Positions 7,500 to 13,559 of a stretch of 15,331 nt of DNA are shown piece by piece (position 1 is the stretch's first letter; every line of letters begins with the position of its first letter). The notes under the pieces are model-generated. The model saw nothing but the letters and a program-made list of their open reading frames with translations. It was not told where the DNA came from and searched no databases. Location: IMG/VR virus record IMGVR_UViG_2648501437_000028. One strand, 5' to 3'. The position numbers and the translations under genes are program-made. Source of the stretch: a virus. Its lineage: Duplodnaviria > Heunggongvirae > Uroviricota > Caudoviricetes.

Positions 7500-7712
7500 A
7501 AAAAAAGTCCTGGGGTTAAGTAAGGAACTCCAGGACGCGGCAAAAACTCAACCGTTTTTCATAAGGAAATCAGCAATCGCACCGATCGTTTTCCCGCCTG
7601 GTAATGAATATTGGCGAGAACATTAACAGGCGGAAAAGTGGCCCCAGCGTCCTGGCACCACGGGCGAGAATAATCATGATTCAGTTCGGGTAAAATATGC
7701 CGATCCGCTCAG

Positions 7713-7742
7713 TGAACAACGTGGAACAACCACGAACAAATA
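7713..7742. promoter_or_regulatory. Three 10-bp units GAACAACGTG GAACAACCAC GAACAAATAA upstream of the capsid operon
   Basis: Read directly; shares the 15-mer with 252-266; lies between the terminator after the PerC-like gene and the capsid leader. Confidence 0.45.
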
Positions 7743-7761
7743 ATTTACAAAACATGACAAA

Positions 7762-7779
7762 AAGCCGGATTGCTCCGGC
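7762..7779 (-). terminator. Probable intrinsic terminator after the PerC-like gene
   Basis: AGCCGGA-TTGC-TCCGGCT stem-loop followed on the minus strand by TTTTTGT. Confidence 0.5.
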
Positions 7780-7786
7780 TGTGTGA

Positions 7787-8059
7787 TTATCTGTCCTGGT
7801 AATTTCGCCATATTTCATTACCAGCACCATCCATACCCATTTCGGCATAAGTGCGATCGACCGCCTTTTTCAGGTCTCCGTAGTTATCCGGCGGCTCCGG
7901 TGGCCTCTGTGCCTTCCTGGAACATTCCAGCCGTCGCATCGTGATGTGATGCCGTTCCTTGTCTGTCTCCACCAGTTGCATGACTTCACCCCATCGCGCC
8001 GACGCTCTCCGGTAAAAGCCTTTCGCCTCCAGTTCTTCCGCTATGCGGTCATGTACCAT
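7787..8059 (-). CDS. PerC-family transcriptional regulator-like protein
   Basis: About 90 aa from the ATG at 8059 (the track start at 8068 is GTG); AEELEAKGFYRRASARWGEVM resembles the PerC/Pch N-terminal signature; GAGGGGTGGGG Shine-Dalgarno upstream. Confidence 0.6.
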   Translation of the reverse strand: MVHDRIAEELEAKGFYRRASARWGEVMQLVETDKERHHITMRRLECSRKAQRPPEPPDNYGDLKKAVDRTYAEMGMDGAGNEIWRNYQDR

Positions 8060-9045: not shown

Positions 9046-10800
9046 TTATAAAAACGCGTCGCACTCGTCTGTTGTTATTGCGTTAGTCTGCGTTACTCCC
9101 TTAACTTTCCGCGTAATATATTCATGTCCGTAAACTTTCGCGGCTGGCTTCATAGCCTTGCCAAAGTCATTTACGTTTAGCGGTTTGCTCCTGCCTGCGT
9201 ACGCCATAAACGCCAGATAGACGCGGTAAAGGCTGTTTCTGGTCGTGTACTTCACTGAATCGCCACCGCCGCCCATCATCAGGCCGCGTGCTTCCTCCAG
9301 AAAATTCAGGAACTGGCAAAACTCAATAACCGGATCCGTCTGTTGCTTTATTGCCAGAGCTTCATCACCGTCACGCTGTTCCAGTAGTAAAGCCCGTGCC
9401 TTCTCAGGGTCGGTAAAGTTCGCCAGCAATCGGCGGATAATGACAGGGATTTCAGCCGCGATCTTTTCCGGTAGCTCCCTGTCTTTTTCGGCCTCACTGA
9501 CGATATTGTCGAAACGGAAAATCACGCGACGACGTGCCACACCTCCGGCCCGTTCGGTGAATATCATCGGGTTATTGTTGGTCGCCAGCACCACCGCCCT
9601 GATTACCGCCGTGAAACGCTTTTCGTATTTCGGGTTAATTTCCACGGGGTCACCGCCCGTGATTTTCTTGATGCCCGTTCCTTCGCCTGTATATTTCGGC
9701 TGGTCAGCCAGGACGATAAGACGACTCCCGACAACCTGCGCACGTCCACCAGCATCATCAAGCGATGTCATTTCAGCGCTTACCGTGTTCTGTTTCCCTG
9801 CCAGAAGGCTGGCTATGTGTGTGAATGTACTTTTACCGCTCCCGCCGTCTCCGGTGGCCTCAATAAACATCTGCCAGTCGTACCGGTTCGCCATAATCAT
9901 GTACAGCGCGGCACATATACGCATCATCTTGCGCGGGTCTTTTCCGGCTGCGTGCTCAAGCCATTTATGAAAGTTTGGCGCGTTATCGCGGATGTTCTCC
10001 CCTGGTGCTGGTGGCGTGTACTCAATGCCGTTGTGCGTGGTGATCCAGTTCTCCGGCGTGTGCGGGGAAAATTCCCCCGTTTTCAGGTCAAGCGCACCAT
10101 TGGCGAACGGCAACAAATCGCCGGACGGCTCGCCCATTGGTTCGGCAATAACTTTTAACGCTTCCACGGCGTTATTGATTACGCGCTTGCTGAAAGTGGC
10201 CCTGTGCTCTGAATAGATCGCCACCATTTCGCGGCTAAGTTCCATTGTGCTGACCGGACACCATACCCCGCCGCGCCATACGTGAACGATTTCACTTTCA
10301 GGATGTACGCAAACGCCATCAAAGCGATCGGCAAGCAGCTGCGCGCGCTCACTGTCCGCCATCTGCGAAAGTTGCGCCTTTTGCTTTACCGGAAGCTCAA
10401 TGACCAGACCATCAGAAAGATTCTGGCGCTCACGGGCCAGATATTCGCGCCAGTTCTCCACCTTCTGACCGTGCATACCATCAGGGTAAAAATTTGCATC
10501 CTGTACGCCTGCCGCCGCCAGCTTCTGACCAATCGCCTTTATCATTACTGGCGCAAGATATCCGGCCCTGAATATGCGCACGGATTTTCTGCCTTCCGGC
10601 ACAATTTGCAGCTTATCCAGTTCGGATAACTGCTGCTCCCCAAGCCACACAGGAGGCTCATTATCTCCGGCCATACGCGCGTCATGTTCCTGCCATTGTT
10701 TTGCGTGTGACCAGGCATCACTACCCGCAAAAATAATGACTTCTGTTTCTTTGTGTTTTATGCCGCGTGACTGCTGTTTTACGTTCGGTGCCAGTTTCAT
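9046..10800 (-). CDS. Primase/helicase, P4-alpha-like (TOPRIM-like N-terminus plus SF3/D5-type NTPase)
   Basis: 584 aa; Walker A GDGGSGKST, Walker B-like LIVLADQ; N-terminal acidic primase-like segment; ATGA overlap with the upstream gene. Confidence 0.8.
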   Translation of the reverse strand: MKLAPNVKQQSRGIKHKETEVIIFAGSDAWSHAKQWQEHDARMAGDNEPPVWLGEQQLSELDKLQIVPEGRKSVRIFRAGYLAPVMIKAIGQKLAAAGVQDANFYPDGMHGQKVENWREYLARERQNLSDGLVIELPVKQKAQLSQMADSERAQLLADRFDGVCVHPESEIVHVWRGGVWCPVSTMELSREMVAIYSEHRATFSKRVINNAVEALKVIAEPMGEPSGDLLPFANGALDLKTGEFSPHTPENWITTHNGIEYTPPAPGENIRDNAPNFHKWLEHAAGKDPRKMMRICAALYMIMANRYDWQMFIEATGDGGSGKSTFTHIASLLAGKQNTVSAEMTSLDDAGGRAQVVGSRLIVLADQPKYTGEGTGIKKITGGDPVEINPKYEKRFTAVIRAVVLATNNNPMIFTERAGGVARRRVIFRFDNIVSEAEKDRELPEKIAAEIPVIIRRLLANFTDPEKARALLLEQRDGDEALAIKQQTDPVIEFCQFLNFLEEARGLMMGGGGDSVKYTTRNSLYRVYLAFMAYAGRSKPLNVNDFGKAMKPAAKVYGHEYITRKVKGVTQTNAITTDECDAFL

Positions 10801-11096
10801 TTTTTACCCCTGAATCCGTTAATCATGGTTTTCAGCTTCTGGATGTTTGCCCGTGCCCTGGCGTTGCTGGTGGACACGTTATGCGGCGCGGTCTGTACCA
10901 GAGAAAAATCACGCCGGAACTGATAAACAGGCATCACGCAATCATATTCGTAACCTTCACGGCGGTAGGTTACGCGCCGTTCTTCCACGCCCTTAATCAT
11001 TACCGTGCCGCCGTACTGGTCGCGGTAAATATCGCCGCGCGTAAATTTAGGGTGAGTGTTGCCACTGGCAGTTAAGCCAGAATATTTAAGTTTCAT
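10797..11096 (-). CDS. Hypothetical 99-aa protein, translationally coupled to the primase
   Basis: ORF track; GGAGA Shine-Dalgarno before the ATG at 11096. Confidence 0.5.
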   Translation of the reverse strand: MKLKYSGLTASGNTHPKFTRGDIYRDQYGGTVMIKGVEERRVTYRREGYEYDCVMPVYQFRRDFSLVQTAPHNVSTSNARARANIQKLKTMINGFRGKK

Positions 11097-11918: not shown

Positions 11919-12351
11919 GGTGCACCTCCTGCACATCAGCCATGATAATTTTTCCGGCCTTATCCAGTGCCTGATCGGCTTTTAGCTGCACAAATGCTAA
12001 ATGGAAGATGCATTCTGATTCTCTGGCTGCGTGTTTATGCGCCCTGTCAGCAATAACAGAAATATCAATAAGCGCGTGCATCAGCGTAGTGAGCGCGGCG
12101 GCGGCTGCGTCCGGTGTGGTTTTATTGCACATGTACCCCTCCGCATTTTTTTCGTTAGAAATAAGCGTTCTTCTTTCCTGTTCATCGCTCAGGAATACGC
12201 AGACCTCACCGCTAAGGCGTTTAAGTAAGCCGATGATTGCCCCTGATTCGCTGTCGGTCATCATGCTAGGGTAATCCTCTGCCAGTGCGCAAATAACTTC
12301 GATTTGGTGGGCGCGTTCTGCTGCCTGTTGTAGTGTGATTTCCTGGCTCAT
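11911..12351 (-). CDS. Hypothetical 146-aa protein
   Basis: ORF track; ATGA overlap with the upstream 66-aa ORF. Confidence 0.5.
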   Translation of the reverse strand: MSQEITLQQAAERAHQIEVICALAEDYPSMMTDSESGAIIGLLKRLSGEVCVFLSDEQERRTLISNEKNAEGYMCNKTTPDAAAAALTTLMHALIDISVIADRAHKHAARESECIFHLAFVQLKADQALDKAGKIIMADVQEVHHA

Positions 12352-12548
12352 AAGCCTACCCCCTGACGAATACGGGCAGCAAATACCATCACGCAGCCAG
12401 CCGGAGATTGCTGGCGTGCTTCCTGTTCGCTGGTGGCCTCAATGGTAATCACGCGCGGTTGTGCCGTGCTCAGGGCGATAAAACGCCAGATGTATTTATT
12501 CAGGTTGTGCGAGTCCCGCCCTTGCGGGTGTGTGGTATGATTTCTCAT
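12348..12548 (-). CDS. Hypothetical 66-aa protein, first gene of the leftward operon
   Basis: ATG at 12548 preceded by GAGGTAG; it is the 3' part of the 384-aa track ORF, whose upstream extension I reject. Confidence 0.45.
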   Translation of the reverse strand: MRNHTTHPQGRDSHNLNKYIWRFIALSTAQPRVITIEATSEQEARQQSPAGCVMVFAARIRQGVGL

Positions 12549-12583
12549 AGCTACCTCGATACTCTCGTTATCGTTGGTGGTTA

Positions 12584-12724
12584 GAAGCCCCGTTACTGCT
12601 CCAACAGTGCGGGGCTTCGTCGTTTCAATTGCTGAATTGCATGTATCAGCACTTGTGGTATTCACATTACATTTAGGTGAATACCATTTCAAGTCTTTTT
12701 TGGTATTCACTTTTGTATTACACT
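12584..12724. promoter_or_regulatory. Divergent control region: long hairpin GAAGCCCCG...CGGGGCTTC (12584-12618) and operator-like repeats TGGTATTCAC-N11-GTGAATACCA (12656-12686), TGGTATTCAC (12701-12710), GTATTACAC (12715-12723)
   Basis: Read directly; lies between the start of the leftward operon (12548) and the start of the RHH gene (12754). Confidence 0.5.
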
Positions 12725-12753
12725 GCATCCCGTTATTAATGGGAGGTGCAAAC

Positions 12754-13059
12754 ATGTCCAGGAGTTCTGTTAACAATAAGTCACAGCAACTGAATGCCAG
12801 ATTTCCACATGAAGTAGTGAGTGGCATTGAGGCATCCCTACAGTCAGGGGAAACTAAAGCGAATTTTATAGTTACGGCTGTACGCGGTGAGATCGCCCGG
12901 CGCCAGGCAGAAGGAAGTGGAGAAAATCCCCTGGTTTCTTCGCTCGATGCACTGGCGCAGGTGGAAAAACTCGGAATCAAAGCCGCCGAGGAGATCGGGC
13001 AGCTCGTCACTGTCGCACGTGAAGAACTCCAGCGCCGCAAGACCAAAGAACCAGAGTAA
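12754..13059 (+). CDS. Ribbon-helix-helix (CopG/Arc/MetJ-like) DNA-binding protein; candidate repressor of the switch
   Basis: 101 aa from the ATG at 12754 (GGGAGGTG Shine-Dalgarno); N-terminal NARFPHEVVSGIEASLQSGETKANFIVTAVRGEIARR fits a beta-strand/helix/helix pattern; the track ORF starts further upstream at 12574. Confidence 0.55.
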   Translation: MSRSSVNNKSQQLNARFPHEVVSGIEASLQSGETKANFIVTAVRGEIARRQAEGSGENPLVSSLDALAQVEKLGIKAAEEIGQLVTVAREELQRRKTKEPE

Positions 13060-13116
13060 TCACCATCAGCGCCGTGGTGTAAGGTATTACGGCGCATTGC
13101 TATGCAGGACAACACA

Positions 13117-13290
13117 ATGACCGATAAAGAATTGACCAAAACATTATCACCGGCACGGAAAAGACGGCGCAGAAAGATAGAGCATGAATCAGAAAGATTC
13201 GCGCCATGTGCTTTTGCCCTTGAGCAATTCCTTAAAGAGTACAGGGAAAAGCGCTCATTGCAGGTATGGCAACGAACTGAACCAGACTGA
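13117..13290 (+). CDS. Small, highly basic 57-aa protein
   Basis: ATG at 13117 with AGGAC upstream (track ORF starts at 13102); contains the RKRRRRK run; function unknown. Confidence 0.4.
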   Translation: MTDKELTKTLSPARKRRRRKIEHESERFAPCAFALEQFLKEYREKRSLQVWQRTEPD

Positions 13291-13385
13291 TTGCATTGCC
13301 CACCAGCCTGATAACGGCTATCATCCCCGTGCTTATGTTTGGGATCACACACACAAACGGCGCAGCGGGTTATCTGTTCAGAAAG

Positions 13386-13413
13386 GCGGCTCCATTTCGG
13401 GGCCGCTTTTTTT
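13386..13413 (+). terminator. Intrinsic terminator, possibly bidirectional, between the convergent plus-strand pair and alpA
   Basis: GCGGCTCC-ATTTC-GGGGCCGC stem (one G-U pair) followed by TTTTTTT on the plus strand; A-run on the other side. Confidence 0.6.
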
Positions 13414-13559
13414 ATACCTGAAAAACCCCAATTTTGTTGTTTTTCAGTTTCACCAGGGCGAACGAATCCCCGCCCACGTTCTGGCGTATATTCAATCTTC
13501 ATGGTTATAGCTCTGTGTTCAGATGATTGATGTGTGGCGGCTGCGTGCCGCCAGCGTGA

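Follow-up and report, generated by a model that had tools for sequence, protein, structure and literature searches.

The 15,331-nucleotide (nt) stretch of viral DNA (Caudoviricetes) held as IMG/VR record IMGVR_UViG_2648501437_000028, here called the window, carries a major capsid gene of the HK97 type (7499-6342, minus strand; Pfam Phage_capsid, E 1.5e-61), which is the first gene of a packaging operon. The question raised by this locus is how the leader in front of this gene controls capsid production. The original prediction had described three mutually complementary elements and a run of U before the capsid start codon, the middle element being able to pair with either neighbour, and had proposed an attenuator or a translational gate. 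On balance, we lean towards the leader of the capsid/packaging operon being a cis-acting RNA switch that gates the ribosome-binding site (RBS). The leader is a divergent member of an undescribed family of folded 5' leaders of a familiar kind, and this family is widespread. Positions are those of the window, and all features of the leader are read on its minus strand.

Three complementary elements at the capsid start

The predicted parts are all present, and their arrangement is not due to chance. Element 1 (CCAGGACGC, 7655-7647) forms the 5' arm and loop of a hairpin, P1. Element 2 (GCGUCCUGG / GCGTCCTGG, 7538-7530) is an anti-RBS segment that partners either element 1 (9 bp) or element 3 (7+3 bp). 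Element 3 (CCAGGAC, 7513-7507) is the 3' arm of a second hairpin, P3, and is followed by a tract of seven U (U7, 7506-7500), found only in the E. coli/Shigella clade, and directly afterwards by the capsid AUG (7499-7497). An independent repeat search recovered both pairings: elements 1 and 2 are complementary at 9 of 9 positions (repeat I5), and elements 2 and 3 make an 11-nt hairpin, 91% complementary, with an 8-nt loop (repeat I3). Two details had not been noticed before. Element 3 contains AGGA (7511-7508), which is probably the Shine-Dalgarno sequence of the capsid gene, and element 1 lies within a local hairpin. The switch has four parts, element 1 being caged in the conserved 5'-terminal hairpin P1 and not free.

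To gauge chance, the 165-nt leader was shuffled 20,000 times with its dinucleotide composition preserved. Perfect inverted repeats of at least 9 bp turned up in 3.3% of these shuffles. The full arrangement, a 9-bp inverted repeat plus a copy of the first arm of at least 7 nt ending no more than 12 nt from the ATG, occurred in three (0.015%). Near-copies of CCAGGACGC number seven in the window, a count reached by 12 of 200 shuffles and within expectation. The transcribed leader is probably about 160 nt long, counted from a predicted start at about 7660, and is shorter than the 250 nt or so supposed originally.

A conserved fold in related islands

Homologues of the capsid protein with 64-100% amino-acid identity were found at about 240 loci, most of them on contigs of 13-18 kb, from E. 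coli, Shigella, Citrobacter, Erwinia, Rosenbergiella and Gilliamella and from IMG/VR contigs. There is a shared upstream plan. Its first part consists of an invariant TGTAAAT, short direct repeats, TTT(A/T)C, exactly 16 nt and TATNNT; its second part consists of P1 with a GACG loop, a variable hairpin P2, a linker, P3 with the RBS GGA in its 3' arm, and the AUG. The 18-nt P1 motif is present in at least 120 viral contigs, and 118 of 120 matches lie 118-144 nt upstream of a capsid-like start. Leaders of the P1 family span several genera, Citrobacter, Erwinia and Rosenbergiella included.

In the window, P1 (GUGGU-G-CCAG-GACG-CUGG-G-GCCAC, 7661-7638) is the 5'-terminal hairpin, has the invariant GACG loop, holds element 1 and has a predicted free energy of -15.6 kcal/mol. 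P2 is a long hairpin (UUUUCCGCCUG...CAGGCGGGAAAA, 7590-7637; repeat I1, 17 nt, 88% complementary), whose sequence is highly variable among islands and which has compensatory changes at 11 of 12 basal pairs across the family. P3 (GUCCUGG-A-GUU-(8-nt loop)-AAC-C-CCAGGAC, 7507-7536) ends in element 3 as its 3' arm. It has a predicted energy of -13 to -14.1 kcal/mol and a pair probability of at least 0.99 in the full leader, and the Shine-Dalgarno AGGA is paired within its 3' arm with the same probability (at least 0.99). RNA structure prediction had been suggested as a check, and the hairpin of elements 2 and 3 over the Shine-Dalgarno sequence is indeed part of the minimum-free-energy form of the full leader. 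This fold, P1 + P2 + P3, reaches -66.0 kcal/mol for the transcript 7661-7470, and the whole intergenic RNA (7790-7480) folds far better than its shuffles do (z-score -5.2).

The fold is conserved. A structure alignment was made of 70 non-redundant leaders (pairwise identity below 94%). P1 was 97.9% paired with changes on both sides at 5 of 9 pairs, and P1, P2 and P3 together were 90.9% paired with changes on both sides at 21 of 34 pairs. Covariation over the three hairpins was 0.257, compared with 0.145 in shuffles (reached by 0 of 500) and at most 0.089 in slid controls. RNAalifold, unguided, yielded P1, P2 and P3 alike. A covariance model built from 31 leaders of the main class, window-clade sequences being excluded, matched the window at 7662-7560 with 26.3 bits and an E value of 4.4e-7 (runner-up, E 0.71), aligning its P1 and P2. 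The family P3, GGUUUC-A-CGU...ACG-GAAACC, was not aligned in the window by this model, and the window P3 (GUCCUGG/CCAGGAC) uses other alignment columns than the P3 of the main class. In the main class, the hairpin at the P3 position covers the RBS GGA (-12 to -10). The alignment suggests that the window P3 does the same job with a remodelled sequence and is not a positional homologue of the main-class P3. In two relatives (L001 and L022), UCAGGAC puts a G.U at the innermost pair of the 7-bp stem of P3. Searches of Rfam 15 returned only a chance-level RsaJ match elsewhere for the whole window (E up to 1), and only noise for the window leader and one main-class leader (E up to 5).

Ahead of element 2 there is a region that resembles a former capsid start (UUAUGAAAAAC, 7548-7562), in which a mini open reading frame (ORF), AUG AAA AAC GGU UGA, can be read, ending 10 nt before element 2. 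The sequence UUAUGAAAAACGGUUGA at 7548-7562 resembles the capsid start CAUGAAAAAAC of other islands, and the match of the main-class covariance model stops on its AUG (7562-7560). When the window was aligned with L001 and L368, the region was missing from the divergent E. coli relative L001. Possibly it is what remains of an older start after a rearrangement from which elements 2 and 3 as they are now, the U7 tract and the MPRII N-terminus arose.

Alternative pairing of the middle element

The claim that the middle element has two partners is borne out, in that both pairings look functional: the fold speaks for the pairing with element 3, and comparison between leaders speaks for the pairing with element 1 (the 1:2 helix). 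Complementarity of elements 1 and 2 is retained in three clades of divergent sequence. The pairs are AGACGUGA (P1 loop and 3' arm) with UCACGUCU in the main class, GACGGGA with UCCCGUC in the L079 group, and CCAGGACGC with GCGUCCUGG in the window. The GACG:CGUC core of the helix is the same in all 70 leaders, and covariation is seen in the columns flanking it. At column pair 60:182, 58 leaders have U-A, 8 have G-C and 4 have C-G, and at column pair 62:180, 66 have A-U and 4 have G-C; each is paired in 70 of 70. There is also covariation between column 60 and column 55, its partner within P1, giving three-way patterns at columns 55/60/182 and 53/62/180, as expected of one strand that has two partners. 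Covariation of the 1:2 helix was 0.120, against 0.050 in shuffles and at most 0.051 in slid controls. With about three lineages behind it, this covariation is suggestive and not conclusive.

Two leader types of unrelated sequence share the layout of decoy, anti-RBS segment and RBS, and this appears more telling than the 1:2 covariation. In one type (L052, L055 and L234) the three elements are CAUGCAG, CUGCAUG and CAUGCAGGAG, at about 150 nt before the capsid start, and the last copy overlaps the Shine-Dalgarno sequence. In the Gilliamella-type leaders (L008, L080 and L090) they are AGAUAUG, CAUAUCU and AGAUAUGAAA, the last copy including the AUG; the triple AGAUAUG / CAUAUCU / AGAUAUG-AAA was read in L008 and L090. 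Exact triples of this kind occurred in 0.3% of shuffled leaders. The upstream copy is, in its behaviour, a decoy of the ribosome-binding segment.

Predicted folding during transcription

When the window transcript was lengthened base by base, P1 was the best structure until element 2 was complete. The 1:2 helix was the best one for 3' ends from 7530 to 7515, and P1 with P3 was best thereafter. The same helix was the minimum-free-energy form in 8 of 12 leaders when the transcript ended before the 3' arm of P3, and in those truncated leaders it grows to about 15 bp and stacks on P2. The closed fold wins by at least 6 kcal/mol once element 3 emerges, so the leader is closed by default. RNAalifold on main-class leaders ending after element 2 kept P1 and did not give the expected 1:2 helix. 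The two forms would therefore be close in energy at this stage, according to these predictions.

Gate, terminator and other explanations

The hairpin P3 and the U7 tract form a unit like an intrinsic terminator, that is, a G+C-rich hairpin (-13 to -14.1 kcal/mol) directly before seven U, and to this extent the window has the terminator-like hairpin at the start codon that had been described. The leader might then be a transcription attenuator, with P3 and U7 as a true terminator that ends most transcripts at 7506-7500, as an RNA about 160 nt long, with the 1:2 helix as antiterminator and with control being mainly transcriptional. A mutually exclusive, antiterminator-like helix is present, since the 1:2 helix shares the 5' arm of P3, and the interval over which this helix has the lowest free energy coincides exactly with the passage of polymerase from element 2 to element 3. 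The layout is also like that of a lambdoid late promoter with its proximal terminator. In L001 and L368, the only divergent relatives of the window clade (leaders about 73-80% identical to that of the window), both arms and the U tract are kept despite a strongly diverged linker, the only change in elements 1, 2 and 3 and the U run being one C-to-U, which gives a G.U pair. A search for further divergent window-type leaders in E. coli returned the L001 type again only, and little covariation within the clade was usable. However, the last 8 nt before the AUG hold 7-8 U in all four window-clade representatives and 0-3 U in the 66 main-class leaders, and the other leader types have no U run either, although the RBS hairpin is kept. 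The terminator scan did not call P3, its stem being interrupted, and U-rich spacers ahead of an AUG simply favour translation as well. The leaders have no leader peptide in common (36 of 66 are without any AUG), and no Q- or N-like antiterminator is encoded in the window by Pfam or PHROGs. We regard an attenuator of this kind as unlikely. The U tract is limited to one clade and the RBS hairpin is kept in all, the ribosome-binding segment being paired in all leader types, and a translational gate is therefore ranked first. The conserved role of the leader is most likely a translational gate by occlusion of the RBS, to which the E. coli/Shigella clade may plausibly have added termination. Of the two functions originally offered, the gating of capsid production is thus supported in substance, and termination does not hold as a general feature.

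The same structures could also be a static 5' untranslated region, in which P1 to P3 serve mRNA stability, 5' protection or processing by RNase III/E and the complementarity of elements 1 and 2 has no switching role. The closed fold does dominate the equilibrium ensemble, P1 stands at the predicted 5' end, where a protective hairpin is expected, RNAalifold retains P1 on truncated leaders, and the invariant 1:2 core could be conserved for another reason. A static leader does not account for the three-way covariation at columns 55/60/182 and 53/62/180, nor for the same layout in unrelated sequences of two other leader types (0.3% of shuffles) and in the window (0.015%), and where the Shine-Dalgarno sequence of the protein needed in greatest amount is buried, there must be some way to open it; we find this explanation improbable. 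In another explanation, at the level of DNA, elements 1 and 2 would be inverted protein sites about 110-125 bp apart, downstream of the promoter, and bound by a looping repressor. We hold this to be very improbable, and equally so that the concerted change of both copies reflects co-evolution with such a protein. It is true that elements 1 and 2 are exact inverted copies which change together between clades, and that the 8-9 bp core contains no G.U pair, which would be proof of RNA pairing. But the flanking helices P2 and P3 show strong covariation of the RNA type, G.U intermediates included, element 1 covaries with its P1 partner too, and in the other leader types a third copy lies over the Shine-Dalgarno sequence or the AUG, which is sensible for RNA and not for an operator.

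Several observations weigh against the RNA switch that we favour. Forcing the 1:2 helix costs 6 kcal/mol in the window and 6-14 kcal/mol across the leaders tested, and the open form has an equilibrium probability of about 1e-4. The RNAalifold result on truncated main-class leaders, mentioned above, points the same way. The covariation of the 1:2 helix is based on about three independent lineages only, its core is without variation, and the pattern of elements 1 and 2 is also what a protein with a pair of inverted sites on the DNA would produce. P3 of the window clade is out of register with that of the main class. About 35 related islands have a short leader without P1 to P3, so capsid expression does not depend on the module. 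The transcription start is itself a prediction, and if it were at the TGTAAAT box, the fold-back described below would always be present. Finally, no trigger or sensing device was found among Rfam aptamers or as an antisense RNA in the window.

Other candidates were tried and rejected. Attenuation by a leader peptide was considered, as an ATG at 7678 of the window opens an ORF of 35 codons, but this ATG is replaced elsewhere (CAGA, ATC) and lies upstream of the predicted start. CsrA sites (CAGGA in elements 1 and 3) are missing from the main class and hence not general. A kissing loop or pseudoknot for GACG:CGUC is unlikely by inspection, as a 4-nt loop cannot fully pair with a helical strand. 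For a trans-acting antisense RNA from the island, the rest of the window contains no complementary match to the leader of at least 12 nt, and matches of 10-11 nt are no more frequent than by chance.

Proposed mechanism and its meaning

In the RNA switch that we propose, transcription would start at about 7660, from a weak sigma-70 promoter lying below an array of direct repeats. In the closed form, drawn from prediction and comparison, P1 would hold element 1 and P3, made of elements 2 and 3, would bury the Shine-Dalgarno AGGA. In the window clade, ribosome binding would be blocked in this form, and U7 after P3 may terminate transcription at the start codon. In the open form, whose function is the less direct part of the model, element 1 would leave P1 and pair with element 2, P3 could not form and the RBS would be exposed. 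The open form is predicted to be lowest in energy only while polymerase is between 7530 and 7515, and expression would be set by co-transcriptional kinetics or by a factor that destabilises P1 or stabilises the 1:2 helix. As a second safeguard, an 11-bp fold-back would silence transcripts that read through from the replication module.

It is also conceivable, if rather doubtful, that the near-invariant P1 (GGCACUCAGACGUGAGCC, here CCAG-GACG-CUGG) and the CACGUC segment are a sensor for a trans-acting factor that appears only after induction of the helper phage. Such a factor could be a late protein of the helper, a satellite protein or a small RNA. If this were true, satellite capsids would be made only when helper tails are coming, and the leader would represent a new class of riboregulator and the first checkpoint at the RNA level in the timing of a phage satellite relative to its helper.

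Phage-inducible chromosomal islands that form capsids (cf-PICIs) make small capsids of their own, and tails are all that they take from helper phages. According to the cf-PICI papers AlpA is required for induction; control of the capsid operon, and the timing of capsid production beyond AlpA, are not covered there. The literature on cf-PICIs, on the island OI-51 and its regulator RgdR, and on small RNAs of enterohaemorrhagic E. coli contained no account of the present leader. A conserved promoter and leader with mutable nucleotides give a handle on capsid timing. If the leader is a switch, it sets the yield of satellite particles, and hence the horizontal transfer of island-borne genes, and it is a compact, portable translation gate that is off by default.

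Putative promoter, upstream boxes and fold-back

Upstream of P1 there is a putative sigma-70 promoter (7667-7694), with a -35 element TTTACC (7694-7689), a spacer of 16 nt and a -10 element TATTCT (7672-7667). Among the 70 leaders, TT(T) of the -35 element and T-12, A-11 and T-7 of the -10 element are invariant, and the spacer is always 16 nt, without indels and with variable sequence. Based on this conservation, we infer that transcription starts at about 7661-7658, near the first base of P1 (about 7660). The promoter agrees with the consensus at 8 of 12 positions and was not called by a consensus scan, and this weak match fits a promoter that needs an activator. A reading of TATAT as an RNA element or as the start of an upstream ORF was rejected, because the invariant T, A and last T and the fixed 16 nt from TTTAC fit a -10 element better. 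A sigma-54 promoter (TGGCAC in P1) was rejected by eye, the -12 element being absent and the window having TGGTGC.

Two further features lie upstream of the promoter. The TGTAAAT box (7743-7749), about 85 nt upstream of the predicted start, is invariant across divergent islands and genera. It lies about 215-250 nt upstream of the capsid ATG, a distance conserved in most of 78 distinct upstream regions, and a related box (TCTGTAAATCAT, 13854-13843) is found directly upstream of alpA. The box could be an activator site or the -10 element of a second promoter. Three direct TTGTTC repeats with 10-bp spacing (7714-7739) are centred at about -76, -67 and -57 from the predicted start. In the 15.3-kb window, the periodic array TGTT-N6-7 x3 occurs only here and, inverted, at 14058-14020, where four copies with the same spacing lie between int and alpA. 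The repeats are possibly an activator-binding array, and the position of the only other such array makes the Xis-like AlpA the obvious candidate. A repeat array near alpA was not recovered in other contigs by exact k-mers or by a strict periodic pattern.

The 5' arm of the fold-back (GAUUAUUCUCG, 7665-7675; repeat I2) is complementary at 11 of 11 positions to 7495-7485, that is, to capsid codons 2-5, and is part of the minimum-free-energy fold of 7790-7480. In addition, UCGGCAUA (7703-7696) is complementary to UAUGCCGA (7500-7493) over a perfect 8 bp. The arm at 7675-7665 overlaps the -10 element. As both segments lie upstream of the predicted start, only transcripts reading past the terminator at 7780-7763 would contain them. 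The helix 7675-7665:7495-7485 should then silence read-through transcripts from the replication module. Other leader classes have 14-15 bp of complementarity to the start-codon region, with examples such as CAUAGUGUU/AACACUAUG in L050 and GGCGUU/AACGCC in L204. In the short-leader class the fold-back is 92.8% paired, compared with at most 60.6% in slid controls. Covariation of the fold-back was not above that of shuffles, though its complementarity is conserved. The short-leader class (L045, L047, L048, L050, L053, L054, L057, L123 and about 25 more; L045:2927-3021) combines the TGTAAAT box and the fold-back with a hairpin bearing a T run, and its leader is about 40-50 nt long with no obvious Shine-Dalgarno sequence. 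In many main-class islands (L005, L007, L062 and others; for instance L005:2816-2850), the position of the -35 element is overlapped by CCCCUGUCUCUGACGGGGGUUUUCUUU, a G+C hairpin and T run. It is probably an extra terminator against read-through, and the window has no equivalent.

Island context

From its gene set and size, which are as in the cf-PICI papers, we take the window to be an EcCIEDL933-like cf-PICI. Every long ORF is on the minus strand. The genes recognised by Pfam and PHROGs encode an integrase, AlpA, a D5-type primase, SSB, a PerC-family protein, capsid, protease, portal, connectors, an HNH protein, TerS and TerL; no tail or lysis families were matched in the 15.3-kb window. The tyrosine integrase (15331-14114) is followed by AlpA (13829-13560) and by several small proteins. 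There is also a 384-amino-acid ORF (12348-13502) without a Pfam match, whose C-terminal 90 residues or so match PHROG families of transcriptional repressors; judged by this match, it is possibly the master repressor of the island. A 99-amino-acid DUF4222 protein (10797-11096) may be RgdR, the type III secretion regulator reported for OI-51, on the basis of its length, the island type and the literature. Further along are the D5-type primase (10800-9046), SSB (8482-8072) and the PerC-family protein (8068-7787), which adjoins the leader on its upstream side and corresponds to the PchE-type protein described for the EDL933 island OI-51.

A gap of 287 nt separates the ORF of the PerC-family protein from that of the capsid. 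In this gap the terminator scan found an intrinsic terminator (7763-7780; 7-bp stem, five G-C pairs, 4-nt loop, TTTTTGT tail) that lies 7 nt past the stop codon of the PerC-family ORF. It closes the replication/perC transcription unit and insulates the capsid operon. Downstream of the capsid gene, the packaging operon continues with a prohead protease, a portal, a head-completion protein, a connector, an HNH endonuclease, TerS and TerL. A fourth copy of CCAGGAC lies in the last perC codons (7793-7799), upstream of the terminator. Its pairing with element 2 would be confined to read-through transcripts, and the copy may be due to chance.

The region between perC and the leader differs between islands. 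In relatives, O157-type islands included, an extra small gene of about 74-87 amino acids (phrog_1957; MPxT...DHHGF motif) sits there (L003:3115-3463, L001:2712-2972 and L002:2730-2978). The window is without it, owing to an apparent deletion of about 354 bp near 7786. Accessory genes are inserted between the phrog_1957 gene and the leader in other islands. Some E. coli islands share the promoter and P1 and have PerC replaced, directly upstream of the leader, by an RNA-binding protein with a ProQ/FinO domain (L002:2209-2739), and a role of this protein as an RNA-level partner of the leader is possible. The leader of the window itself is present in 361 of 5,426 complete E. coli genomes (about 7%), among them O157:H7 EDL933 at 98.3% identity, where the match is inside the published coordinates of island OI-51/CP-933C.

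Comparison with known systems

The translational gate that we favour resembles in plan the leaders of translational riboswitches, for example E. coli thiM, whose expression platforms oppose an RBS-sequestering hairpin with an anti-sequestor. In both, a hairpin at the start codon buries the Shine-Dalgarno sequence, and an upstream segment, itself held in a competing local helix, can take the anti-Shine-Dalgarno strand. Unlike thiM, the present leader has no identified aptamer or sensor and no Rfam match, its upstream segment is a literal copy of the RBS, acting as a decoy, and it stands in the structural operon of a phage satellite.

The trp and pyrBI leaders of E. coli are classical attenuators that work by an intrinsic terminator. 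The window clade is similar to them in having overlapping helices, a 3'-most G+C-rich hairpin with a U run before the first gene and a middle segment shared with an antiterminator. The family differs in that it has no conserved leader peptide, the U run is missing in most members, and the hairpin covers the Shine-Dalgarno sequence, so that translation would be affected regardless of termination. A terminator close behind a late promoter is also known from the lambdoid pR' with tR' (6S RNA; the StxS small RNA of Stx phages). The window clade likewise has a promoter, about 160 nt and a terminator-like hairpin with a U run directly before late structural genes. However, no Q gene and no recognisable Q-binding or pause element were found, the U run is not conserved in the family, and read-through would come from alternative RNA pairing and not from modification of the polymerase.

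For the fold-back, the parallels are the early-transcript hairpins of the T4 genes for lysozyme (e), soc and I-TevI, and the fold-back inhibition of IS10, by which read-through transcripts are silenced. As in those systems, the 5' arm in the window lies upstream of, and overlaps, the operon's own promoter, and transcripts from the proper promoter would escape. The window helix differs in covering codons 2-5 and not the Shine-Dalgarno sequence, in its weak covariation and in depending on a predicted transcription start.

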